From positions 184,253-248,252 of the forward strand of contig CAXXSL010000013.1 in the NCBI GenBank assembly GCA_963675525.2: a DNA stretch of 64,000 nucleotides, in the 5' to 3' direction. Source of the stretch: Anaerohalosphaeraceae bacterium (GTDB lineage: Bacteria > Planctomycetota > Phycisphaerae > Sedimentisphaerales > Anaerohalosphaeraceae). The notes beneath the pieces are model-generated. The model was not told the DNA's origin. It did no database searches and was given only the letters and a program-made list of their open reading frames with translations. A program made the translations under genes and the position numbers. This document shows positions 5,228 to 45,363 of the stretch, in pieces (within the stretch, counting starts at the first letter, position 1; each line of letters starts with the position of its first letter).

Positions 5228-7102
5228 ATGTCATTGCGTGAAAGAATTTCGGTTGTCCTGTTCATCATGTTCTGCTGTTACGGCGGGCTTGAATATGCCG
5301 CGCAGCGATGGCTGATATATCCGGAGTTTGTCTCCCAGGAACAGCAACAAGCCCAAAACTCTAGTAATAAAGTCATAAAAGCCATTAATACCCGATTTTC
5401 TGATTTCCGCAATCAGATCGTCACATCCGCCCAATCCGGGGAAATCGATTCAATGCTCAAAAACACGGCTAACCGCAATGCCATCGGCCAGATCGAAGCC
5501 GCGGATTTTATCGTCCTGTTTGACTATAAATGGAATCCTGTTTTCAGTCAACTTTCCGAGCAAATCACGCCGGAACAGTTTCGGAAGGAACTGCTGGAAG
5601 GCACGACGCCGTTTCTGACAAAAAAACAAATGGGGTTTTCCAAAAAAGGAATTTGCACCCTCAACGGACAGTTCATCTATCTCGTCACCGAACCGGTTCT
5701 GGCGTCCCCTCAAAATAATAAAATCGAGGGAATGGTCTTTGCCGGACAATTCCTCACGGACGAAAGTTTTGAAAAACTTCGCCGGGAACTGAACCTCAGC
5801 TTCAACTGGGATATTCTGACACCCGACAACCAAAAGAAGGAGAATTCGGAAATCATCGATCGAATTACGGCCGAAAAGCCCTATGACTTTTTATCACTGG
5901 GCGACAACTTCATGCAATGCTCGACGGCTCTTTTTGATTATCAGAACCACCCCGCCCTTTTGATCAAAACATTCCGGGATAAAAGTATCAGTGTACAGGG
6001 TTTACAGGCCGTCCATAAGTCTATTCTCATCAAGCTGGTGGCAGGGTTTGTAGCCGTATTATTTGTTATTGTACTTTTGCAGATGGTCGTCATCAGCCCT
6101 ATTATGAAGCTGATAAAGCATGTCGTCAAACTTGAACACCCCGGCAGTGCGAAACAGAAATGTATCCTGTCACGGAAAGATGAGATAGGCACTCTGGCCA
6201 CAGAGTTCGACCAGATGTGCCAACGGGTACAGAATGCACAAGTAAAATTGATGGAAAAATCATACCTGTCCGGTGCCACAGAAATGTCATCCGGCATCCT
6301 GCATAATGTCCGAAATGCCCTCAGTCCGATCACGACCCGCATCGGACGAATCAAAGACCAGTTCCATGATATCCCGCTGGATAATCTTGAAAAGGCGCGG
6401 GAAGAACTGAAAAAAGGAAGCCTCACTCCTGAACGGCGAGCGGATTTGATGCGATTCGTAGAATTGACATTCCAGCAGGTTATGGACAATCTCAAAGAAA
6501 CCGTCTCCGGACTGGAAGACCTTTGCGGGCAGGTTAGTCAAATCGAAGACATGCTCAATACGCAGAGAACTTTTGGCTCCAAAGATGACAAGCCGGTTGA
6601 GTTCATCGAACCCGCCCGGCTGTTAGAAAATGCGATAGGAATGATTCCTGAAAAAATTAAAACAAAAAACCGGATACAGATCTGCCCGAAAATTCAGGAA
6701 CTGCCGGCAATTCCCGTCCATTCGACAACATTCATACAAATCCTGCAAAATCTTATCATAAATGCGTCTGAATCGCTGGAACGTGAAACCCCTCTTTGCC
6801 CCAAAATCAATGTTTCCTGTAAAATCGATCCGCAGCAGGACACCGTCGATATGATGCACTGGAAAATCGAGGACAACGGCACCGGCATCCCGGCGGATAA
6901 AATTGAGACTATTTTTGAACGGGGTGCCTCGTCAAAAACCAAGGGGTTAACGGGCATCGGACTGCACTGGTGCGCCAATACGATCAATGCAATGAAAGGA
7001 CGCCTCTGGGCCGAAAGTGATGGTCTTCACAAGGGCGCCTGTTTCCATATTACAATGCCGATGGCAGCGGAAGAATGCCTTGCGGGAACGAAAGAAGGAT
7101 AG
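5228..7102 (+). CDS. Sensor histidine kinase (two TM segments, extracytoplasmic domain)
   Basis: 624 aa. N-terminal TM and second TM (VAGFVAVLFVIVLLQMVVI). H-box-like SGILHNVRNALSPI, N-box LQNLIINASES, G1 DNGTGIP, G2 GLTGIGL. Confidence 0.8.
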   Translation: MSLRERISVVLFIMFCCYGGLEYAAQRWLIYPEFVSQEQQQAQNSSNKVIKAINTRFSDFRNQIVTSAQSGEIDSMLKNTANRNAIGQIEAADFIVLFDYKWNPVFSQLSEQITPEQFRKELLEGTTPFLTKKQMGFSKKGICTLNGQFIYLVTEPVLASPQNNKIEGMVFAGQFLTDESFEKLRRELNLSFNWDILTPDNQKKENSEIIDRITAEKPYDFLSLGDNFMQCSTALFDYQNHPALLIKTFRDKSISVQGLQAVHKSILIKLVAGFVAVLFVIVLLQMVVISPIMKLIKHVVKLEHPGSAKQKCILSRKDEIGTLATEFDQMCQRVQNAQVKLMEKSYLSGATEMSSGILHNVRNALSPITTRIGRIKDQFHDIPLDNLEKAREELKKGSLTPERRADLMRFVELTFQQVMDNLKETVSGLEDLCGQVSQIEDMLNTQRTFGSKDDKPVEFIEPARLLENAIGMIPEKIKTKNRIQICPKIQELPAIPVHSTTFIQILQNLIINASESLERETPLCPKINVSCKIDPQQDTVDMMHWKIEDNGTGIPADKIETIFERGASSKTKGLTGIGLHWCANTINAMKGRLWAESDGLHKGACFHITMPMAAEECLAGTKEG

Positions 7103-7107
7103 ACATT

Positions 7108-8415
7108 ATGGACTTAAAAAAAGAGCTGAACAAACGAATTCTACTGGTAGATGACGAACCGAAGATCCTTGAAGAACTGCAGAAAGTTCTCGTGCCGGCC
7201 GAAACAAACGGCAAGGAACTGCAGGAGTTGCAGGGTCGGCTGTTCGGGGAATCCGCCTCATCCGGCACCGCAAAGGCAACCTATGATGTACACTGCTGCC
7301 GGCAGGGAGATGAGGCACTGGAAGTCGTTCGGCAGGCTCAGGAAAACAATGAGCCGTTTGCCGTGGCGTTTATGGATGTTCGAATGCCGCCGGGACCGGA
7401 TGGCGTCTGGACCGCCGAACATATAAGAGAAATCGACCCGAATATACAAATCGTCATGATGACGGGCTATTCGGATTTTGACATCAGCGAGATCGCCAAA
7501 CGGGTACCGCCCGAAGATAAACTCCTGTATGTCCAGAAACCGATTCACACACAGGAAATCCGCCAGTTCGCGCTGGCGCTGACCGCCAAATGGCAGTCAG
7601 ATTATCTGCTCCATATCCAGAACGCCCAACTCAAAGATGCCAATGAAAAACTGAAAAAGCTCGACCATATGAAAAGCGAATTCGTCATGACCGTATCGCA
7701 TGAGTTGCGCACGCCCCTGACGATCTTTAAAAATATCATCTCGAACGCCATTGCCGGAGTCATGGGGAAAATCCCTCCCAAGCTCGAACATAATCTTAAA
7801 ATGGCTGACGAAGCCGTCAATCGACTGTCCAGTATCATCAGTGATTTTCTGGATGTCTCCAAGCTCGACGTCGGGAAAATGAAACTGCATCAGGAGGTCC
7901 TCTGCGTCCAGACCGTCATGAATGAAATCGGCGAAATGGCCCGCTTCGTAACCGGCAATAAACACATCCATTTTGACGTAAATTTGCCCTCGGATGATCT
8001 TTATATCTATGCGGATATTGAAAAGATCACGCGCATCATTAACAATCTGATTGAAAACGCCGCAAAATTCGTACCCGAGGGGACCGGTGAAATCACCATG
8101 CGAGTGGAGGAAATCGGCGGCGACCGCATCGGCATCTTTGTCAAGGATAACGGTCCCGGCATCCCCGGCGATGATAAAGAAAAAATATTCGACCAGTTCG
8201 TACAGATCGAAAAACACGTCGGTCCCGGCAAACACGGAACCGGGCTGGGTCTGTCGATCTGCCGCGAGTTGGTCCGGCTTCACTCCGGCCACATCTGGGT
8301 TGAAGACAATCCTGCAGGCGGAGCGATCTTTAAAATTCTTCTGCCTAAATGGGATGTCCAGGAAAATCGCTACGCCGTAACGGATGTCCTTCAGGAAGAA
8401 ACCGTTACCGTATAG
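7108..8415 (+). CDS. Hybrid response-regulator/histidine kinase (REC-HisKA-HATPase)
   Basis: Start placed at ATG 7108 (GAAGGA 8 nt upstream, just after the upstream TAG at 7100-7102) rather than the track start 7075. REC motifs LLVDDEP, MDVRMPPGPDG, VQKP. HisKA SHELRTPL. HATPase NLIENAAKF, DNGPGIP, GTGLGLSI. Confidence 0.85.
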   Translation: MDLKKELNKRILLVDDEPKILEELQKVLVPAETNGKELQELQGRLFGESASSGTAKATYDVHCCRQGDEALEVVRQAQENNEPFAVAFMDVRMPPGPDGVWTAEHIREIDPNIQIVMMTGYSDFDISEIAKRVPPEDKLLYVQKPIHTQEIRQFALALTAKWQSDYLLHIQNAQLKDANEKLKKLDHMKSEFVMTVSHELRTPLTIFKNIISNAIAGVMGKIPPKLEHNLKMADEAVNRLSSIISDFLDVSKLDVGKMKLHQEVLCVQTVMNEIGEMARFVTGNKHIHFDVNLPSDDLYIYADIEKITRIINNLIENAAKFVPEGTGEITMRVEEIGGDRIGIFVKDNGPGIPGDDKEKIFDQFVQIEKHVGPGKHGTGLGLSICRELVRLHSGHIWVEDNPAGGAIFKILLPKWDVQENRYAVTDVLQEETVTV

Positions 8416-8612
8416 TTAATGCAGGATGTTGCCGGTTCCGGGCGCAAACCGACATGACAGGCAACCCTTAATTCACCTTTAATACCCACTCCTCAATGAA
8501 TCGTGCCAAAATCGGAGTTTTGCCGGGTTTTCTGCCATAATGGCATATCTGCTTTGTGTTCGATAATTTTTAAGTCCTTTCAATAGAAAGAGTTAAGATT
8601 ATATTTTTTGTC

Positions 8613-8628
8613 TGGCACGCTGATTGCA
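8613..8628 (+). promoter_or_regulatory. Sigma54-type -24/-12 promoter upstream of dnaK
   Basis: TGGCACGctgaTTGCA matches the RpoN consensus TGGCACG-N4-TTGCW at every specified position, 69 nt upstream of the dnaK ATG. Palindrome TCTGCCATaaTGGCA lies at 8531-8545. Confidence 0.55.
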
Positions 8629-8696: not shown

Positions 8697-10628
8697 ATGG
8701 GTAAGATCATTGGAATTGACTTGGGAACAACCAACTCAGTCGTAGCCGTCATGGAAGGCTCAGCGCCGAAGGTTCTGATCAACGCGTCCGGAGCCCGGTT
8801 GACCGCCTCCGTAGTCGGCTTCACTGAAAAAGGTGAACGCCTGGTCGGACAAACCGCCAAACACCAGCAGGTCACGAACCCGCAAAACACCGTTTATTCA
8901 ATCAAACGGTTTATGGGACGCCGCCACAAAGAAGTCAGCAGCGAAGAAAAGATCGTCCCTTACAAAATTACAGGTGGTGCTGACGAACTGGTCAAGGTCG
9001 ATGTCCGAGGTAAGGAATACACCCCGCCGGAGATTTCGGCCATGATTCTGCAGGACCTGAAAAAGACCGCCGAGGATTACCTCGGCGAAACCATTGAGCA
9101 GGCGGTCATTACCGTACCGGCCTACTTTAACGATGCCCAGCGCCAAGCCACCAAGGACGCCGGCAAGATCGCAGGCCTGAAGGTTGAACGCATCATCAAC
9201 GAACCGACTGCCGCGGCACTGGCATACGGACTGGAAAAAAAGAAAAACGAAAAAGTCGCCGTATTTGACTTCGGCGGCGGCACATTCGATATCTCGATCC
9301 TCGATATCGGCGATAACGTCTTTGAAGTACTCAGCACCAACGGCGATACACATCTCGGCGGTGACGACCTCGACGAATTGCTGATGAACTACCTGGCCGA
9401 TGAATTCAAAAAGACCGAAGGCATCGACCTGCGGACCGATCCGATGGCGCATCAGCGGCTGAAAGAGGCCGCTGAAAAGGCCAAATGTGAACTGAGCACG
9501 CAGGTCGAAACAGCCGTGAACCTGCCGTTTATCACAGCGGATGCTTCGGGCCCCAAACACCTGAATATCACCATTACTCGCAGCAAATTCGAGGCACTGG
9601 CCGAGCCGATCTTCGAGCGTCTGCGTCAGCCCTGCCTGAAAGCCATTCAGGACGCAAAGCTGAGTACCAGCCAAATCGCGGAAGTCCTGATGGTCGGCGG
9701 TTCAACCCGTATCCCGATGGTCCAGCAGATTGCCCAGGAGATCTTCGCTAAGGCCCCAAACAGAAGCATCAACCCGGACGAAGTGGTTGCAATGGGTGCA
9801 GCGGTTCAGGGCGCGGTGCTGGCAGGCGATGCCGGCGTCAAAGACATTCTGCTGTTGGACGTAACCCCCCTGTCGCTCGGTGTCGAGACACTGGGCGGCG
9901 TCTTAACCAAACTGATCGAACGCAACACCACGATCCCAACCAGCAAAAAGGAAGTCTTCTCGACCGCTGCCGACAGCCAGACCAGCGTGGATATCCACGT
10001 CCTGCAGGGCGAACGGGAATTTGCCCGCGACAACCGCACACTGGGCCGGTTCCAGTTAACGGATATCCCGCCCGCTCCGCGCGGTATGCCGCAGATTGAA
10101 GTCACATTCGACATTGACGCCAATGGCATTCTGAACGTCTCTGCCAAAGACCTTGGCACCGGAAAGGAACAGTCTATCAAAATTCAGTCCAGTTCGGGCC
10201 TAAGCGAAGACGAAGTCGAAAAGATGCAGAAAGACGCCGAGGCACACGCCGAAGAAGACAAAAAGCGTCGTGAGGTCGTCGATCTGAAAAACCAGGCCGA
10301 CCAATTGGTCTATTCGACCGAAAAAACCCTCAAAGAGCACGGCGAAAAGGTTTCCGCCGAGATTCGCGGAAACATTGAAAGTGCCCTGAACAATCTCAAG
10401 GAAGCCGCTAAAGGGGACGACGGCGAAGCCATCAAACGAACGATGGAGAAACTGGGAGAAGCCTCTCAGGAACTGGGTAAAGTTCTCTATGAAGAAGCTG
10501 CCAAACAGCAGGCCGCACCGGGTGGTGCAGCACCGGAAACCGATCCCGGCCAGGCACCCGAAGGCGAGGTCCGCAGAAAAGGCGATGATGATGTGATTGA
10601 CGCGGAATTTGAAGCAAAAGACAGCTAA
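8697..10628 (+). CDS. dnaK: Molecular chaperone DnaK (Hsp70)
   Basis: 643 aa with Hsp70 signatures [22 protein letters not shown] and [19 protein letters not shown]. Acidic C-terminal tail. Confidence 0.97.
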
Positions 10629-17311: not shown

Positions 17312-17533
17312 CTAAGAGGCAGCTTTTTTTCGTTCGGATGTAACAACCGCTGCCAAAAGGATATGACGAAGCTTTTCGACGTCCAGGCTTTTCAGGTACT
17401 CTTCTGTAAAGTCCATTCTTATCAACCCGTCAAAATGCAGCAGGCGTTCAATAATTTCAGTCTTATTTAATGAGGTTATATATGCACAATACTGTTCAAA
17501 CGACAGACTCGGGGCCATGGTTTTCCACTCCAA
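17312..17533 (-). CDS. Small hypothetical protein
   Basis: 73-aa ORF with no motif recognised. Coding status uncertain. Confidence 0.35.
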   Translation of the reverse strand: MEWKTMAPSLSFEQYCAYITSLNKTEIIERLLHFDGLIRMDFTEEYLKSLDVEKLRHILLAAVVTSERKKAAS

Positions 17534-17712
17534 AATAAAATCCTGTATCCATTGGGAGTATCGGAAATTTTCAATACGTCATTTACGTCTTTCTAAATAA
17601 AATTTAGCGAATGTTTCCAACCGCGGCCGCTCTACTTATATCTACGTTAACCGATTCTTTCGGGTCAGACATTTCCTTTGAAAACAGCCGCCAAGTCTGT
17701 TATTTTCGGGTC

Positions 17713-18765
17713 ATGAAAACAGACGACCTCAAATACGACCTGCCGGAAGAACTGATCGCCCAGTCGCCCGCCTCAAAAGCGTAAACTGTCGCGGTTGCTG
17801 GTTGTGGACCGCTCACAGGACTCGCTGTCGGACTGCCTTTTCAGCGATCTGCCCGACTATCTCAGGAGCGGCGATTGCCTGGTGCTCAATAATACCAAGG
17901 TGCTCCCGGCTCGATTCTATGCGCAAAAGCCGACGGGCGCTCAACTTGAGGGGCTGTTCCTGGTTGAAGAGGCTCCCGGAACGTGGCAGGTGTTGTTGAA
18001 AAACTCGCGGAAGATCAGGTCCGGCGATACGCTTGAACTGCTGGACCGCCATCACAAGCCGTGGTGTGTCGGGCTGTCGCGCACAAAAGCCAAACGCCGG
18101 GACAGTGGCTGCTGCAGCCCCAAACAAAAACGGATGCATTGAGCTGCCTGGAGCAAATCGGGCTTGCTCCCCTCCCGCCATATATCAAACGCACTGCCGA
18201 CGATGCGCATCTTCAGGAAGACCTGGATCGTTATCAGACCGTTTATGCCGCCCAGCCCGGCGCGGTGGCCGCGCCGACCGCGGGCCTGCATTTTGACAAA
18301 GCGATGTTGGAGCAAATTCAGCAGATGGGTGTTCGGATCGCCTATGTCACCCTGCACGTCGGCATCGGCACCTTCCGGCCGGTGCAAACCGAAACGCTGG
18401 ACGAACACCCCATGCACGAGGAACGCTACGAGATCGCCCCGGTCGCCGCCGAAACGATCAATCGGACCGTTCAGGCAGACGGACGGATCATCGCTGTCGG
18501 TACCACATCCGTCCGGACACTCGAATCGGTCGCTGCAGATCAAAGCGTCCGAGCCGAAAAAGGAAAGACAAAATTATTCATCCAGCCGGGGTATGAATAC
18601 AAGATCGTCGATGCCATGGTCACCAATTTCCACCTGCCCAAATCAACCCTGCTGGCATTGGTCGGTGCTTTCGCCGGAATGGACAGAACCCAGAACGCCT
18701 ACCGCCACGCCATCGAAAACAAGTACCGCTTCTACTCCTACGGTGACGCCATGCTTATCCTGTAA
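17713..18765 (+). pseudogene. queA: S-adenosylmethionine:tRNA ribosyltransferase-isomerase QueA, frame broken twice
   Basis: ATG 17713 gives MKTDDLKYDLPEELIAQSPASK, then TAA at 17782. Removing one A from the A-run 17775-17778 restores ...SKRKLSRLLVVDRSQDS (ORF 17795-18142). A second shift near 18059-18064 joins to ORF 18061-18765 (PLPPYIKR, GAVAAPTAGLHF, AVGTTSVRTLES, VTNFHLPKSTLL, YRFYSYGDAMLI). Confidence 0.85.
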
Positions 18766-18789
18766 TGGGTAAAAATTGTTTAAACAGCA

Positions 18790-19557
18790 CTTATCCCGTA
18801 GGGATAAAATAACAATTGCCGCCGGTGTTGGGAGCAAAGCGACCGAAACCCGCGGTAACGAATACACCCACACCCCACGACCCCACTTATCCCGCAGGGA
18901 TAAAATAACAATAGCCGCGGGTGCAGGCCGCAGGCCGGAACCCGTGGTATGGATCCATTTACAAACCCATCGACCCTGTAGGGGTCGAATAATCAACACA
19001 GATATTTTTCATCAAATTCGATCCCTGCATGCTGAAGCATCTCAATATATTCCTCACGAAATGTTTTACGACGATGATGCACAAACTGATTCGCAATATA
19101 ATTGATAATCCGGTCTTTGTCCTTCCATGAGCAGGTGAAGGCTCCATATCCATCCTGCCAACACTCGAACAGTGGAAAGATTTTTTTGGTTTTGATCCAT
19201 TTGGATTGTGCCAACTTGACGTCCTTGACCAATCCGGCCAAAGCAATCGTCGGATGCAATTCGGCCAAAATGTGCAGATGGTCTGTATAGCCCCCGACCT
19301 TATAGACGAAACAGTTTTTGTTCTGTAAGACTCCGGCGGTATATCGGCATAATTCATCATGGTGTTCAAGATCAAGCGTGCCGTTGTGATTTTTTGTGCC
19401 GTAAACGATGTGATATAAAATCTGTGTGTACGTTGCCATGGATGCCTCCTTATTCGACCCCTTCGGGGTCGGCCCGGTTTTTTCCTCCTGTCCACGGGTT
19501 CCGGCCTGCGGCCTTCACCCGCGGCTATTCTTATTTAAAGCCCGATGGGCTTTAATT
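18790..19557. mobile_element. RAYT/IS200-like element: Y1 transposase gene flanked by REP-type palindromic modules arranged as imperfect inverted repeats
   Basis: Left arm: hairpin ATCCCGYAGGGAT, AATAGCCGCGGGTG...GGAACCCGTGGTAT, and CGACCCTGTAGGGGTCGAATAATC. The first two modules are duplicated at 18790 and 18885. Right arm, inverted: TTATTCGACCCCTTCGGGGTCG, CCACGGGTTCC...CACCCGCGGCTATTCTTATT, AAAGCCCGATGGGCTTT. Confidence 0.75.
18993..19439 (-). CDS. IS200/IS605-family Y1 (HUH) transposase, REP-associated (RAYT-like)
   Basis: 148 aa. N-terminus MATYTQILYHIVYGTK, HUH motif DHLHIL, catalytic-Tyr helix RIINYIANQ. Flanked by REP-like palindromes. Confidence 0.8.
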   Translation of the reverse strand: MATYTQILYHIVYGTKNHNGTLDLEHHDELCRYTAGVLQNKNCFVYKVGGYTDHLHILAELHPTIALAGLVKDVKLAQSKWIKTKKIFPLFECWQDGYGAFTCSWKDKDRIINYIANQFVHHRRKTFREEYIEMLQHAGIEFDEKYLC

Positions 19558-19584
19558 CGTACCGTAAAACATTATGTCCAATTC

Positions 19585-19857
19585 TTAAATTTCATCCTCA
19601 ATATGAATCTCGACGTTTTCGCGGTAGGCGGAGCTGTCCTTCATTTTGTACTGGAGGATGAACATGCGGACGGCGTAACCGATGGCGGAAAAACCCGCGA
19701 TGAAGAAAATGGCCGCGGCGATAAAGGCAAACAGGTCGCGCAATACGAATACCAGCATACCGAAACCGATCAAAAACAGCCCCAGCACCAGTGCCCCCTT
19801 AGCCAGCCCCTGTGTGGCCTGCCGAACGGGGTCGCCCTGAAAAAATAGTCGAAACAT
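19585..19857 (-). CDS. Small membrane protein, hypothetical
   Basis: 90 aa with two hydrophobic helices (ALVLGLFLIGFGMLVFVL, IAAAIFFIAGFSAIGYAV). Confidence 0.45.
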   Translation of the reverse strand: MFRLFFQGDPVRQATQGLAKGALVLGLFLIGFGMLVFVLRDLFAFIAAAIFFIAGFSAIGYAVRMFILQYKMKDSSAYRENVEIHIEDEI

Positions 19858-19967
19858 AAGATGCTCCTTTCAGTCGCAATATCAAATATCAAACATTAAA
19901 TATCAAAATAGCGGAGTCTGCCGTTCGGCAGACGACTTCCGTAATTTTACATTTCACCTTTTGCTTT

Positions 19968-21777
19968 TTATATTTGCCAGTAGATTTCCATGCCGCAGTC
20001 GCCGCAGTGGAAACGAAGTTCAAAAGTCCGACCATCTTCATCAACCAGCACCAGCGGTTCGGCCGGGTTATCCCGGTTATTCCCTTCGCACAACCCCAAT
20101 TGCCTTCTGATGCAGTATTTCGTCGTCATCAGCTTTTGCCCGTGTAGGTCCAGGCCGCTTTCGGCGGCCGGTTCGATGGTCTGAACGCCATGCCGCCGGT
20201 AAAATTCTTCCGCCTTTTCATTCAGCACATTGCCCGTAAAGGATAGATGCGTTTCGGGATACGGCGTTTGGTTTTTTATGACACAACCGGAAAGTTTTGG
20301 CCGGTTTTTCTCGCGAATCGACAGCATTGCTTCCACAAGCCCCCGTTTCAGTGCATTCAGCGTCGAGACGGGGAAAAAGTAAACATCCGCCGTTTCGATA
20401 TTAACCGCCTCGCACACAAACAGCGTATTGCCCAGCTTGCCCAGTTGCACAGCAGCCGTTTTCTGCGCCTGCTCTTTTTTCTGTGCGAGCGGCTTCTCGA
20501 CCGCCATCTCAAAAATCGCCTCATTGCCATCTTCATCAACGCCGCACAACGCAATACCGGTATCCGTATCCCGCAGCGTCATCGTCAAGCCGATTTTCCG
20601 CTCGGCGAGCTTTTCAAGCTGCTTTTCAAACCCATGGTCAAAGTTCCGCCGGATTTCGGTGCCAGCCCGCAGGTGTTCGATTTCTGGGGATAAATGCGCT
20701 GACCTTCGACGCGATTGACCACCGTGCCTGCCAGATTATTTGCCGCATCAAAAAAACAAATGCCGTCGCCATTGTGCAACAGCACCGTACCATCTATCTC
20801 AAACCAATCACGCTGCACGTCTTTGACTGTGCCGATAAACTCACCCATCGACTTGGGGCTGTCAATCGATCCCATTTTTTCAGACGGCCGGGCCAATCCG
20901 TACGTTGTAAATCCCCGGTTGAATGTCTTTTGCGGGTCCGGCTGGAAATTCAAAGCAACCCGGCCTGATGAATTCTTTCGCAATCCTTTTGCGGCCAGAA
21001 TCGTGTCCAGTTTTTGCCGGTAGAATCCCACCACATTGGCCGCATACGGCGCATCCTTCAGCCGGCCTTCGATCTTAAACGAGGTCACACCCGCATCAAT
21101 CAGCGATGCCAGATGCTCGGACAAATTCAAATCCTTCAGTGACAACAGATACCGGTCCTTGACAATCACATCGCCCTGCGAATCCTTCAGGCTGTATAAC
21201 CGCCGGCACGGCTGGGCACACTGTCCCCGGTTCCCGCTGCGTCCGCCCAGCGCATAACTCATGGTGCATTGCCCGCTGGCCCCCACACACAGCGCCCCGT
21301 GAACAAAACATTCCAGCTCGATCGATGTATCTTGCCGAATTCCGGCGAATCTGCTCCAGCGTCAGCTCCCGCGCAAGGATCGCCCGCGAAAAACCGACCG
21401 CTTCGAGAAACCGCACCTTCTCCACCGTCGCATTGTTCATCTGCGTACTGGCGATCAGCGGTATTGGCGGCAAATCCAGTTCCAGCAGGCCAGCGTCCTG
21501 AACGATCAGCCCGTCAACGCCGATGTCATAAAACTGGCGTATCATCGCCTCCGCAACCGCCAGTTCCTCATCGGTCAGCAGCGTATTCAGCGCAACATAC
21601 ACCCGCACATAATAAAGATGCGCCAGCTCAACCACCTGCCGAATGGTCTCCAGACTATTGCCCGCCGCCTGTCGCGCACTGAACCGCTCGGCCCCGATAT
21701 ACACCGCATCCGCCCCGCACAGAATCGCCGCCTGTGCGGTTTGGAAAATCTTTGGCCGGAGCAAGTAATTCAATCAT
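19968..21777 (-). pseudogene. Peptidase U32 family protein (collagenase-like/RlhA-like), frame broken three times
   Basis: ATG 21777 gives MIELLAPAKDF (conserved U32 N-terminus). A shift near 21744-21747 leads to QTAQAAILCGADAVYIGAERFSAR. A shift near 21341-21350 leads to IRQDTSIELECFVHGALCVGASGQCTMSYALGGRSGNRGQCAQPCR (U32 signature). A shift near 20685-20689 leads to EIEHLRAGTEIRRNFDH...LTMTLRDTD and the C-terminal domain. Confidence 0.8.
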
Positions 21778-21789
21778 CAAAAATCCTCT

Positions 21790-22047
21790 TCATCCCGTAG
21801 GGATGATAATAAGAATAGCCGCGGGTGAAGCGAAGCGGAACCCGTGGTATAGATGTTCCCCACACATCCATCGACCCCGTAGGGGTCGAATAATCACGAC
21901 AAATCTTTCTCTTCAAACGATATGTTGCCATGTTGTTTCTTTATTCGACCCCGACAGGGTCGGTCAGTTGTTGGTTGTCATCACCACGGGTTCCGTTCGT
22001 TTTACTCACTGCACCCGCGGCTATTCTTATTCCAAGCCCTAACGGCT
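21790..22047. mobile_element. Miniature, internally deleted RAYT/REP element (non-autonomous)
   Basis: Has the same module order as 18790-19557: ATCCCGTAGGGAT, AATAGCCGCGGGTG...GGAACCCGTGGTAT, CGACCCCGTAGGGGTCGAATAATC, then TTATTCGACCCCGACAGGGTCGG, CCACGGGTTCC...CACCCGCGGCTATTCTTATT. Only the first 4 codons (ATGGCAACATAT = MATY) and the last about 8 codons (FEEKDLS*, compare FDEKYLC*) of the transposase gene remain. Confidence 0.65.
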
Positions 22048-22354
22048 GTTACGTTTTCTTTTGAAGTTGGTGAGGGCAGACAGATTGTATGAAAAACCTA
22101 TGGGCAGAAAGAGCCTGACGCCACGTTCTTAAGAGCAACCACAAAAACAAATAAACATCAAATTGTAGTTGAAATCTTAAAGTAAAATCAGTCATAAATA
22201 TCACCTCCTTAATAATCAGAAATGAACAAATGAGGTTTCTAATAAAAAGAAGGCTCAATCTACCCAACTCTTGTTGCCCATAGGCTTTTATGTGGGTTTT
22301 TATGAAATTATCAAAAAAGAGAGCCCTTAATCAGGGCTCTCTTTTTAACTATTT

Positions 22355-23982
22355 TTAATACATGTCGCCGCCGGGCATCGCCGGGGCTTTCTTCTTTTCC
22401 GGTATCTCGCTGACCATCGCATCCGTCGTCAGCAGCAGCGACGCAATCGACGCCCCGTTCTGCAGCGCCGTGCGTTCGACCTTCGTCGGCACGATCACGC
22501 CGAACTTGACCATATCGCCGTATTCCTTGCGGACCGCGTCATAGCCGAAGTTCTTTTCTTTCGATTCCATGACTTTCTGAGCGACAATCGAACCGTCCAG
22601 CCCCGCATTGACCGCGATCTGCTTGATCGGCGCCACCACGGCCCGGCGGATAATATCCACACCGACTTTTTCGTCGCCGATGCATTCGACCTTATCCAGC
22701 ACGCCCAGGCACTTCAGCGTCGAAACGCCGCCGCCCGGCAGAATCCCTTCTTCAACCGCCGCACGGCACGCATGCAAGGCATCCTCGACGCGGGCTTTCT
22801 TTTCCTTCATCTCCGCCTCGGTCGCCGCACCCGACATTGATCTGTGCGACACCGCCGGCCAGCTTGGCCAGACGTTCCTGCAATTTCTCAATATCATAAT
22901 CGCTGGTCGATGCGTCGATCTCGCGTCTTGATCTGCTCGATGCGGCCTCTTGATATCGGCCGTCTTGCCGGCGCCTTCGACAATCGTCGTGTTGTCCTTG
23001 TCAATGGTGATGCGTTTGGCCTGGCCCAACTGTTTCAGCTCGACTGTTTCAAGATTGAGGCCGAGGTCTTCGAACAAGCGCCTGTCCGCCGGTCAGTACC
23101 GCGATATCGGCCAGCATGGCTTTCCGGCGGTCGCCGAAACCCGGAGCCTTGACCGCACACACCTGCAAAACACGCCGCGCAGCTTATTGACCACCAGTGT
23201 CGCCAGTGCTTCGCCTTCCACATCTTCGGCAATGATCAACAGCGGCCGACCCTGCTTGGCAACCTTCTCCAACACCGGCACCAGTGACTTGATCGCACTG
23301 ATTTTCTTTTCATGGATCAGGATATAAGGCTTGTCCAGCACAACCGTGCGGTCTTCCGGCATTATTGATGAAATGCGGGCTGAGATACCCTTTGTCAAAC
23401 TGCATCCCTTCAAGCAGCTCGACATGTCGTTTCCAGCGACTGGCCTTCTTCGACAGTAATCACGCCGTCCTTGCCGACTTTTTCCATGGCCTGGGCCAGC
23501 GTCTTGCCGATCTCGGCATCCTGGTTGGCCGAACAGGTCGCGACCTGCTCGATCTGCTTGCCGGACTCAACCGGCGTGCTCATCTTTTTCAACGCCTCGA
23601 CGATCGCCTCAACGGCCTTGTCGATGCCGCGTTTGACCTGCATGGCATTGGCTCCGGCGGTAATATTCTTTAACCCTTCCTCAAAAATGGATTCGGCCAA
23701 AATCGTCGCCGTCGTCGTCCCGTCACCGGCCACGTTCGACGTCTTGGACGCCACTTCCTTGACCATCTGGGCGCCCATGTTCTCGTAAGAATCTTCCAAC
23801 TCGATTTCCTTGGCCACCGAGACACCGTCTTTGGTCACCGTGGGGCTGCCGAACGATTTTTCCAAAATCACGTTGCGTCCGCACGGGCCGAGTGTCACCT
23901 TGACCGCCGCCGCCAGTTTTTTAACGCCCTGGCGAATCGCTTCGCGGGCCTCTGTATTAAATGCAATCTTTTTCGCTGCCAT
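22355..23982 (-). pseudogene. groL: Chaperonin GroEL, reading frame broken about seven times
   Basis: Three track ORFs (23410-23982, 23093-23425, 22355-23077) plus out-of-frame stretches reconstruct a full GroEL: [13 protein letters not shown]...[12 protein letters not shown]...[12 protein letters not shown] / [22 protein letters not shown] / [20 protein letters not shown]...KLRGV / [31 protein letters not shown] / FEDLGLNLE...ADIK / GRIEQIKT / [31 protein letters not shown] / [20 protein letters not shown]...PGGDMY. Confidence 0.9.
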
Positions 23983-24070: not shown

Positions 24071-24358
24071 TTATTCTACGATTGCCAAAATGTCGGATTC
24101 GTCCATAATCATGTATTCCTTGCCGTCCATCTTAATTTCCGTCCCCGCATAGCTGGTAAACAGGACCTCCTGGCCCTTCTTCACTGTCATCTTCGCCCGG
24201 CTGCCGTCATCAAGCTGCTTGCCGTCACCGACAGACAGGATTTTACCGCGTTTCGGTTTTTCCTTCGCTGAATCCGGCAACACAATACCGCCCGCTGTCA
24301 TAGCTTCTGCTTCTAAACGCTGGACGATCACCTTGTCCCCTAATGGTCTGATCTTCAT
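24071..24358 (-). CDS. groS: Co-chaperonin GroES
   Basis: 95 aa. MKIRPLGDKVIVQRLEAE..TAGGIVLPDSAKEKP..G.ILSVGDG is canonical Cpn10. AGGAGAG RBS. Confidence 0.95.
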   Translation of the reverse strand: MKIRPLGDKVIVQRLEAEAMTAGGIVLPDSAKEKPKRGKILSVGDGKQLDDGSRAKMTVKKGQEVLFTSYAGTEIKMDGKEYMIMDESDILAIVE

Positions 24359-24399
24359 TCTCTACTCTCCTATTGTCTGGTTATTAATATTGCTTAATG

Positions 24400-24428
24400 T
24401 AAAAACGCCATGGCGCAAGCCATGCGAA
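24400..24428 (-). repeat. 29-nt hairpin repeat (copy 1) forming a terminator-like structure in the groES leader
   Basis: Plus strand reads TAAAAACGCCATGGCGCAAGCCATGCGAA, identical to 29813-29841. On the minus strand it reads TTCGCATGGC-TTGC-GCCATGGCG followed by TTTTTA, and lies between the putative sigma54 promoter and the groES RBS. Confidence 0.7.
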
Positions 24429-24451
24429 TCCTCAACTACGAATTATCCTAT

Positions 24452-24469
24452 TTGCAAACATTGTGCCAG
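24452..24469 (-). promoter_or_regulatory. Sigma54-type -24/-12 promoter upstream of groES
   Basis: Minus strand reads cTGGCACAatgtTTGCAa (TGGCAC = complement of 24463-24468, TTGCA = complement of 24453-24457), about 95 nt upstream of the groES ATG. Palindrome TCTGCCATgcTGGCA lies at 24591-24607 (minus-strand reading). Confidence 0.55.
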
Positions 24470-24876
24470 ATCCAATCCCGAACCCACACATATAAACGCT
24501 ATTTCCTTTATTTAAAAGGTCTTACGAAAACATAACTTGCTTTTTACACCCGCCGTCCAAACCCAATTAGACAGACCCGCCGAACCCTGACCTGCCAGCA
24601 TGGCAGACATGGGACCGTAACCGTCTCGGTCACATTTTAATAATGCGGGCGGGACGCCCGCGCTCCCATCCATCCGTAAAAACAAATTTTTTGCCATTTA
24701 ATCCTAGTTTTTATCGGAATTCAACTTGACATCAGATGTTCTCTGTCTGATAATTACCTACAATTGGAGAGAGGGACATTTCTGGAAATTAAGGAGTTCC
24801 CGCACGAAAAATCTTAAGCCTCAGAACCCAAGGCTCAAGGCTGATTTTAAGACTAATTCAATTGGAGAACGGAAAG

Positions 24877-26750
24877 ATGAAAAGAATAATCCTCACAATG
24901 TTAATCATTGCGGCAACAGGAAATGTTTTAGCAAACACATCCGTCTGGCCACTGGATGTTGGACAAACATGGCTCTATGAAAGAACCGATGCAGTCAGCG
25001 GGCCGTGGCAGGTTAATCTTGACGTATTATCAAAACAAACATTGGGTGCCTATGAGTATTACCAGGCCCGAATAAGCAACTACGACAATCAGGGTGAGTC
25101 GGAAGACTGGTACATACGCTCGACTGACACCGGCGTATATACATGGGATGGCTCTGCTGACCAGCTTACATTCCAGATCGCCCCAATCGGAACTGTTATC
25201 ATCAATGGGGATACCCAGCGTGAACTGGTAGCCATTGAGTCCGTAACCGTTCCTTACGGAGGCCCTTATCAGGCTTATAAATATGAAAATCAGGATACGG
25301 TTGAAATGTCCCCATACTGGTATGAATACATTGTGCCGGGAATCGGAATAGTCCAGCAAATAGATTACTGGGCGGATACGGGTTTGGGACAGGTCGCACC
25401 TCTGGAACAAAAGCTTGTCAATATCGAAGGTTTTATTTCGGGTTCAGGAACAGAAGCCGACCCCTATCTAATAGAAGACGTGAATGATCTGGGTGTTTTT
25501 GCCAATCCCGCCAATGCCGGTAAGTACTGGGCCAACGGCGTACATACAATGCTGACCCGCGACCTCGATCTTTTCGGAAGGATTTATTCGAGTGCGGTTA
25601 TCGCACCGGATACAGACGGAACAAACAATACATACCAGGGAACAGCATTTAGAGGTGTTTTTGACGGCAATGATTTTACGATCAGCAATCTGACCATTGA
25701 CGCCTCGACATCCGGCAACGATTATCTGGGATTGTTCGGATACATCAATGGAGGAAGCGTTACCAATCTGAGCTTCGTCGATGTTCACATTACCGGCAGT
25801 AACAGTTCATTAGAAGTTGGCGCATTAGCCGGTCACGTTCAAGGATACACCTTCAGAGTGAACCCGTTGAAATATCGAATTGCCATTCAACCGGCACGAT
25901 AGAAGGCAGGAGCCGCCTTGGGGGATTGATAGGAAACAAAAGTCTTTCTTCAAGCATCAGTGACTGTTCCTCTTCAGCCACCATTACCAGTCTTTTGAAT
26001 AGCTTAGACGGCAGTAGTATCGGTGGATTAGTTGGCAGCAGCAGCGAAGGACAAATTAGCAACTGTCAGTCATCAGGAAACGTCGATGGTTATGCGAATG
26101 TCGGCGGTCTGATTGGACATGCGGGTTATACTCAGATTATTGACTGTCATGCAAGTGGGAGTGTGACAGGCAACAGAGATTCCGGAGGATTGGTAGGGTC
26201 CTGTTCTGCCGGTGCTATTAGAAATTCGTTTGCACTCGGTGACGTAACCTGCGTTAATTTTTATATTGGCGGACTGGTGGGATTTACGTGGTATAACACC
26301 AGTATCACAAACTCTTACGCAATGGGTGATGTCAGCGCTACCAATGAAGTGGGGGGGCTTGTTGGTCATTATGAAGGGGGTTCTATACGCGATTGCTATG
26401 CTGCCGGCGAAGTGGATGGATCTTTTGATGTTGGTGGCTTGATCGGAGTTAATAACGGAGGCGTCCAGACAGGATGTTTCTGGGATGTTGATACGTCCGG
26501 CATGACCGATGGTGTCGGGGACGAAGATCCCGATCCGGCTGGGGTCACTGGCAAAACAACGGGAGAAATGAAAACAGCGGGCACATTTTTGGATGCGGGC
26601 TGGGATATGGTGACGGTCTGGAATATCGAGGAGGTGCAGACATATCCGCTCTTAAGAAAATATTCTGCGGTTGATACGAATTATGACAATCGGATTGATC
26701 TTGTTGACTTTATGGAATTTGCAGGCCACTGGCTTGACGGCGTTGAATAA
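24877..26750 (+). pseudogene. Secreted GLUG-repeat protein with dockerin-like segment; one frameshift and a premature in-frame stop before a PEP-CTERM-like tail
   Basis: Start placed at ATG 24877 (MKRIILTMLIIAATGNVLA signal peptide, GGAGAA RBS). ORF 24862-25902 and ORF 25926-26750 are one gene split near 25845-25860. Frame 0 is open from 25803 and reads ...EPVEISNCHSTGTIEGRSRLGGLIGN. Repeated GGLVG/GGLIG...I.NC/DC...G.V.G (GLUG-type) units. DTNYDNRIDLVDFMEFAGHW is dockerin/EF-hand-like. Confidence 0.6.
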
Positions 26751-45288: not shown

Positions 45289-45363
45289 CGGGGTGTAGCT
45301 CAGTTTGGCTAGAGTGCATGACTGGGGGTCATGAGGTCGCAGGTTCAAGTCCTGTCACCCCGA
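45289..45363 (+). tRNA. tRNA-Pro (anticodon GGG)
   Basis: 75-nt cloverleaf folded by hand. Acceptor CGGGGTG/CACCCCG, D arm GCTC-AGTTTGGCTA-GAGT, anticodon arm CATGA-CTGGGGG-TCATG (U33, GGG, G37), variable AGGTC, T arm GCAGG-TTCAAGT-CCTGT, discriminator A. No encoded CCA. Confidence 0.9.

Follow-up and report, generated by a model that had tools for sequence, protein, structure and literature searches.

The window analysed here, a 64-kb stretch of DNA from an Anaerohalosphaeraceae bacterium, carries a groES–groEL operon and a dnaK operon, and the region upstream of groES is our subject. On comparative sequence evidence, this region is likely an enhancer-dependent σ54 promoter that drives groES–groEL and belongs to a chaperone regulon conserved across Planctomycetota. 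Its two principal elements are an exact −24/−12 sequence and, further upstream, a perfect palindrome that is the putative binding site of the activator. groES (24071–24358, minus strand) is intact and encodes 95 amino acids (aa; Pfam PF00166), and dnaK lies at 8697–10628 on the plus strand. The G+C content of the window is 49%, and the closest organism-named GroES proteins in a protein similarity search came from Phycisphaerae, Anaerohalosphaeraceae or Planctomycetota.

The σ54 promoter of groES, TGGCAC-AATGT-TTGCA (24453–24468, minus strand), lies within cTGGCACAATGTTTGCAa (24469–24452, minus strand) and matches the consensus exactly. Its GG (24467–24466) and GC (24455–24454) are spaced by exactly 10 nt. 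The element is on the correct strand, 94 nt before the groES ATG at 24358, in agreement with the original prediction, which had placed a consensus element ~95 nt upstream of the gene. A sister promoter, TGGCAC-GCTGA-TTGCA (8613–8628, plus strand), precedes dnaK by 68 nt. These two are the only exact matches to TGGCAC-N5-TTGCW in the window, against 0.05 expected, and none of 100 shuffled sequences reached two. Allowing one mismatch gave seven matches against 4.7 expected; such matches are not special, and we therefore rely on the exact pair alone.

The putative upstream activating sequence (site 1) is the perfect palindrome CTGCCATGCTGGCAG (24592–24606, minus strand), which has the symmetry CTGCCA-N3-TGGCAG (6+3+6). 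Its centre, at 24599, is 132 bp upstream of the −24 GG, and that of a putative sister enhancer site before dnaK, CTGCCATAATGGCAT (8532–8546, plus strand), is 75 bp upstream of the GG. Both distances are as originally claimed. The spacing of the half-sites had to be corrected: the proposed form TGCCA-NN-TGGCA gives no match, the true form being CTGCCA-N3-TGGCAG. With three central positions, TGCCA-N3-TGGCA occurs exactly twice in the window (24593–24605 and 8533–8545), against 0.11 expected and with none of 100 shuffles reaching two. The claim that promoter and palindrome each occur twice, and only at the two chaperone operons, thus stands. Beyond these operons, a Pfam scan of open reading frames (ORFs) and a tblastn search with an Hsp20 query found no further chaperone genes in the window. 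Comparison of the 15-mers TCTGCCATGCTGGCA (24607–24593, minus strand) and TCTGCCATAATGGCA (8531–8545, plus strand) confirmed that the two palindromes share 13 of 15 positions. An identical CTGCCATAATGGCA, followed by a gap of 66–69 nt, precedes dnaK in four other genomes (L116, L140, L146 and L189), labelled Anaerohalosphaeraceae, Phycisphaerae or Pirellulales. A general repeat search of the window did not list the 6-nt arms of the palindrome.

The arrangement upstream of groES is conserved. From 80 metagenomic groES loci gathered by protein similarity alone, we took the 52 whose upstream DNA extends over 750 nt or more and searched them for TGYCA-N3-TGRCA with at most one mismatch, followed within 50–180 nt by a −24/−12 element. 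Palindrome and promoter were present in 47 of the 52 loci, compared with none of 37 stretches of downstream coding DNA of equal length and none of 52 shuffled upstream regions. Two of the five negative loci (L054 and L079) show recognizable diverged versions. An alignment of 22 distinct groES upstream regions contains only four conserved blocks, set between diverged flanks. The first is the palindrome, CTGcCa-N3-TGGCAG. The second is a box, aatTttG.cag (CTGCAATTTTGCCAG or TTTGGCAG), starting ~31 nt after the start of site 1. The third, TAAG ... CAA-N4-TTA, resembles an integration host factor (IHF) core and lies in the AT-rich spacer of the relatives; the fourth is the promoter, TGGCAc-N3-aTTTGC. 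Together with the 47 of 52 loci, these conserved islands support the proposal that groES and dnaK share a σ54 promoter with a putative site for an enhancer-binding protein.

Within the palindrome, the relatives keep CTGYCA-N3-TGRCAG. The sole change tolerated in a half-site is TGCCA to TGTCA, which occurs in either arm and so fits a dimeric protein reading identical half-sites. In many related loci a second site lies 31–41 nt downstream of the first; tandem sites of this kind are a classic arrangement for oligomerizing activators. At groES in the window, the possible second activator site, CTGTCTAATTGGG (24562–24574, minus strand), begins 32 nt further downstream than site 1 does. It aligns with the second box of the relatives, and since only ~6 of 15 positions match, we infer rather than observe a site here. 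Between enhancer and promoter, an AT-rich spacer (24490–24545, minus strand, placed approximately from the alignment of 22 regions) may be a region of DNA bending.

Sites for the better-known heat-shock regulators were not found. Neither CIRCE nor HAIR, CtsR or σ32-like sites occur upstream of groES or dnaK in the window. The CIRCE operator TTAGCACTC-N9-GAGTGCTAA had no match at up to 4–5 mismatches in the window or in the 80 related groES loci, and HAIR was absent upstream of groES in the same 80 loci.

The motif pair extends far beyond these relatives. We scanned species-representative genomes for CTGCCA-N3-TGGCA, a gap of 66–126 nt and TGGCAY-N5-TTGC, and found at least 120 stretches with this palindrome–gap–promoter pattern; the following counts refer to the 120 matches listed. 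Ninety come from records named as Planctomycetota, among them Pirellulales, Planctomycetaceae, Gemmatales, Isosphaeraceae, Phycisphaerales, Sedimentisphaerales and Tepidisphaera, and the strains represented include SH139, Stieleria marina K23_9 and Blastopirellula marina DSM 3645. Looking no further than 700 nt downstream, we found a chaperone gene in first place, or right behind a receiver gene, in 84 of the 90: DnaK in 27, GroEL in 33, GroES in 5, a receiver gene and then groES in 5, Hsp20 in 11 and ClpB in 3. Six are exceptions, two of them truncated at the end of a contig. All five matches from bacteria without a phylum name have a chaperone gene downstream, in one case only beyond 700 nt.

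The remaining 25 matches listed come from other phyla, and 20 of them lack a downstream chaperone gene. This number fits the ~30 chance matches that we estimated for the whole collection, a rough figure that assumes uniform base composition. The other five, all in metagenome-assembled genomes, precede clpB in Gemmatimonadetes, hsp20 in two Latescibacterota and one Cytophagia, and dnaK in Bacteroidia (loci L131, L147, L148, L186 and L197). Either the enhancer is more widely distributed, or these contigs are planctomycete DNA that was mis-binned.

The palindrome is also tied to its promoter. In 669 kb of fetched planctomycete DNA, 96 of 98 exact palindromes lie within 30–200 nt of a σ54-like promoter, and the two outside this context compare with 0.6 expected by chance. 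As nearly all copies are so placed, they do not make up a dispersed repeat, the outcome by which the original prediction could have been refuted. Chance co-occurrence or membership in a dispersed repeat family has nothing but the shortness of the motifs in its favour and is effectively refuted, its probability being negligible, by the rarity of both motifs in the window, by the 96 of 98 palindromes near a promoter and by the 47 of 52 groES loci against 0 of 37 and 0 of 52 in the controls.

Distances between palindrome and promoter follow a pattern. At 94 chaperone loci among the matches listed, the gaps cluster at 66–69, 76–79, 86–92, 97–102, 106–112 and 116–122 nt, and for a period of 10.5 bp the resultant length R is 0.40. 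The dnaK gap in the window, 67 nt, is on the modal phase.

These features suggest how the promoter may work. What follows on the binding of proteins, on looping, on the start site and on the inducing signal is our inference from sequence. σ54 RNA polymerase would bind TGGCAC-N5-TTGCA (24453–24468) as a closed complex that is unable to open alone. A dimeric enhancer-binding protein would recognize the TGYCA half-sites of CTGCCA-N3-TGGCAG (24592–24606) and, in relatives, would also occupy the weaker site three helical turns downstream. The activator would then form an ATPase ring, contact the polymerase by looping of the AT-rich spacer and open the promoter. Transcription is predicted to begin near 24442, from the usual distance between −12 and +1, which gives a predicted 5′ untranslated region of ~83 nt (24359–24441, minus strand) with the Shine–Dalgarno sequence AGGAG at 24371–24367 (minus strand), 8 nt before the groES ATG. 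One activator would serve both groES and dnaK here, and groEL, hsp20 and clpB as well in other planctomycetes. The most likely candidate for this activator is an NtrC-type response regulator, composed of receiver, AAA+ and HTH_8 domains, working with a small soluble histidine kinase.

A candidate for this pair comes from the neighbourhood of dnaK in other genomes. At locus L152, an NtrC-type regulator of 452 aa (receiver, AAA+ σ54 interaction domain and HTH_8) ends 44 nt before the dnaK palindrome, and its gene is preceded by that of a 243-aa histidine kinase without a sensor domain. The regulator has a large group of homologues that are 55–77% identical, and those named by organism are all from Planctomycetota. 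We examined the gene context of seven homologues, which together with L152 gives eight contexts. In P0123, P0135 and P0126, the kinase–regulator pair lies immediately upstream of the gene for HSP70. P0123 and P0126 have two palindromes 36–41 nt apart and an exact σ54 promoter between the pair and HSP70, and P0135 has the variant CTGTCA-N3-TGACAG with a weak promoter-like sequence. The recognition helix of the helix–turn–helix (HTH) domain, ERTLYRKIK, is invariant in all eight aligned regulators, a sequence that is common in the wider family.

The best NCBIfam matches of kinase and regulator are AtoS and AtoC, both far below the curated cut-offs. The regulator scores 465 bits against a cut-off of 714 for AtoC, 437 against 559 for NtrC and 418 against 760 for ZraR; it therefore belongs to the NtrC family without being any of the named equivalogs. 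Synteny in four lineages makes this kinase and NtrC-type regulator a plausible activator system for the regulon, an assignment to which we give about even odds. No palindrome or promoter was found upstream of the kinase–activator operon itself, where it would point to autoregulation. In the source genome of the window, the candidate activator is most likely encoded elsewhere, outside the 64 kb.

Other regulators near the chaperone genes were considered as well. A CHASE4 histidine kinase and a hybrid receiver–histidine kinase are encoded at 5228–8415 (plus strand), directly upstream of the dnaK enhancer and on the same strand. We rejected these two kinases as sensors: a search of the other fetched dnaK loci that share this palindrome and spacing (for example L116 and L146) turned up no homologue of either, so their adjacency to dnaK in the window is probably coincidental. 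An RtcR-like activator near dnaK in Tepidisphaera (L138) is of an unrelated type and was likewise set aside.

A stand-alone receiver-domain gene (~130 aa, Pfam Response_reg) lies between the σ54 promoter and groES in most related lineages. The resulting REC–groES–groEL operon is found in L007 (2562–2960) and at the equivalent position in most of L007–L079 and in L113, L118, L129, L132 and L145; the window lacks the receiver gene, as do its closest relatives (L002, L003, L005, L006 and L020). Through it, a phosphorelay may feed back on the chaperone regulon. In distant REC–groES loci, the palindrome and the TTTGGCAG half-site are kept and the −12 reads TTGTTA, not TTGC. The normally invariant GC of the −12 is GT in L039, L041, L042, L049, L051, L053, L061, L069–L071 and L074.

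Several observations weigh against a σ54-dependent, enhancer-driven groES operon as we describe it. At 124 nt, the groES gap in the window misses the modal phase by about half a helical turn, as do the groES gaps of the closest relatives (122 nt in L002 and 125 nt in L005). The spacing statistic itself treats related sequences as independent and is therefore suggestive rather than a clean test. At groES in the window, the second activator site is degenerate. Neither rpoN nor an enhancer-binding protein was found in the 64 kb, as judged from the lack of a GAFTGA motif and of a homologue of the candidate activator; rpoN has been reported for the phylum, as RB6491 of R. baltica (PMC2754498). In four of the eight contexts, the kinase–activator pair lies beside S15–PNPase or an ABC transporter, not a chaperone gene. 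Heat as the inducing signal is deduced solely from the identity of the target genes. Finally, the σ70-like hexamers CTGGCA-16-GATAAT (24469–24442, minus strand), which match at 9 of 12 positions, overlap the σ54 element.

Of the alternatives, the one that survives best accepts the σ54 promoter and takes the palindrome for the operator of a repressor or of another factor that is not an enhancer-binding protein, the true activator binding elsewhere or acting from solution. In its favour, the chlamydial σ54 activator AtoC/CtcC is described as belonging to a two-component system, and AtoC is the protein that our candidate most resembles, although below the family cut-off; CtcC is not known to have a DNA-binding domain. 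Against this, the HTH_8 domain of the candidate activator is intact, and in four lineages its gene directly adjoins palindromes. The palindrome centres lie ~70–145 bp upstream of the −24 GG, the usual position of an enhancer and too distant for steric repression, which makes a repressor operator unlikely. The spacing, which appears phased at ~10.5 bp among the matches listed, and the second site of relatives, set off by three helical turns as in NtrC enhancers, would also speak for an activator. We regard the operator explanation as unlikely.

Expression of groES mainly by a housekeeping σ factor through CTGGCA-16-GATAAT, with the −24/−12 match incidental, is less probable still. The 9-of-12 site supports it but is a weak match; three such sites occur in the region against 1.1 expected. 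Moreover, the position of GATAAT is not conserved in the relatives, whereas the GG, the GC and their spacing are, and the same exact σ54 consensus recurs at dnaK and at ~90 chaperone loci among the matches listed.

It is very improbable that the palindrome regulates instead the divergent gene, which starts near 24878 (plus strand) and is separated from groES by a 520-bp gap. The palindrome is symmetric and lies ~120 bp upstream of a strong σ70-like promoter, TTGACA-17-GATAAT (24726–24754, plus strand), as this explanation would have it; in relatives, however, the palindrome stays in place with respect to the σ54 promoter and the chaperone gene while the upstream neighbour varies in identity and orientation.

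Around the control region of groES we noted further features. A GC-rich inverted repeat, GCGGGCG-TCC-CGCCCGC (24655–24680, minus strand), lies ~50 nt upstream of the palindrome, and a 12-bp terminator-like hairpin (24813–24839, minus strand) lies just upstream of the control region. The product of the divergent gene has a predicted hydrophobic, signal-peptide-like N terminus. Within the predicted groES leader, a small hairpin, CATGGC-TTGC-GCCATG, with a U-run (24424–24409, minus strand) spans approximately +18 to +33, and L006 has a comparable hairpin. We considered an RNA thermometer or attenuator in this leader and rejected it: its fold shows no unusual stability, with a z of 0.27, so we see no evidence for an RNA thermometer, and the sole Rfam match in the window is a tRNA gene (45289–45363, plus strand).

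groEL (22355–23982, minus strand) is interrupted in the assembly by seven insertions of 1–2 nt. Relative to intact relatives, these lie near 23425, 23360, 23170, 23075, 22949, 22925 and 22829, none of them in a long homopolymer. The gene is part of a frameshift-rich stretch of ~6 kb (17500–23500) that also contains a Peptidase_U32 gene split over three ORFs (19968–21773, minus strand) and a QueA fragment (18061–18765, plus strand). As the remainder of the window is intact, the frameshifts point to a local assembly error and not to pseudogenes.

Textbook accounts do not place chaperone genes under σ54, but such control has a precedent in Flavobacterium psychrophilum, in which −24/−12 promoters were mapped by start site at groES–groEL, dnaK, grpE–dnaJ, htpG, clpB and lon (Guerin et al. 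2021, PMC9723704). As here, that work describes a σ54 chaperone regulon, with the activator left open; it differs in that the organism belongs to Bacteroidota and no enhancer motif was reported (PMC9723704). Since only two Bacteroidota-labelled loci are among the 120 matches listed, the enhancer may not be shared with Flavobacterium.

For planctomycetes, a 2025 study in PLoS One found predicted σ54 promoters enriched at the GroEL, GroES, IbpA, GrpE, DnaJ and DnaK COGs of Planctomycetia, and less so in Phycisphaerae (PMC12316311). The groES promoter of the window is an instance of this prediction, which was made with a position-specific scoring matrix at the level of COGs, mentions no upstream activating sequence or palindrome and names no activator for chaperone genes (PMC12316311). 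In the 2009 stress study of R. baltica, chaperones were heat-induced, rpoH, rpoE and rpoN themselves were not regulated, and a markedly different response cascade was suggested; rpoN was not connected with the heat-shock genes, and promoter use was not mapped (PMC2754498). We found neither the enhancer motif strings nor the candidate activator in the searchable literature. σ54 control of planctomycete chaperones is thus already predicted, and the groES site is one local copy; the enhancer motif, the phylum-wide regulon and the candidate two-component activator appear to be new.

The proposed architecture resembles that of glnAp2, the classic enhancer-dependent promoter activated by NtrC through the half-site TGCACC. 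In both, an inverted repeat suited to a dimer is placed 100–150 bp upstream of the −24/−12 element; the second site of glnAp2, at about three helical turns, has its counterpart in loci related to the one here, and the candidate activator is of the same receiver–AAA+–HTH type as NtrC. Unlike at glnAp2, the half-site is TGYCA, the regulon comprises chaperone rather than nitrogen genes, and the candidate is below the NtrC equivalog cut-off. Chlamydia, like Planctomycetota a member of the PVC (Planctomycetes–Verrucomicrobia–Chlamydiae) superphylum, combines a soluble kinase with a σ54 activator and has a heat-shock operon among its σ54 targets. It differs in also using HrcA/CIRCE, and the candidate here is far below the AtoC and AtoS cut-offs; to our knowledge, no enhancer palindrome has been described in the chlamydial σ54 system. 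The HrcA/CIRCE and σ32 systems control the same target genes as the promoters described here, by repression and by replacement of the σ factor, respectively, in contrast to the activation by an ATPase proposed for planctomycetes.

As a broader proposal, which we hold tentatively and with a little less than even confidence, Planctomycetota may run their core heat-shock response (dnaK, groEL/ES, hsp20 and clpB) through σ54 and one dedicated two-component system instead of σ32 or HrcA. The sensor of temperature or unfolded protein would be a small soluble kinase, CTGYCA-N3-TGRCAG enhancers would be the targets of an NtrC-type regulator, and in many lineages a stand-alone receiver, transcribed together with groESL, would feed back on the phosphorelay. 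For genome annotation, the pair of motifs marks the chaperone operons of Planctomycetota with high specificity. Cultured strains with the same architecture include Blastopirellula marina DSM 3645 and Stieleria marina K23_9. The enhancer motif, the regulon and the candidate kinase–regulator pair make the question of how planctomycetes sense and respond to heat and protein damage amenable to simple experiments.

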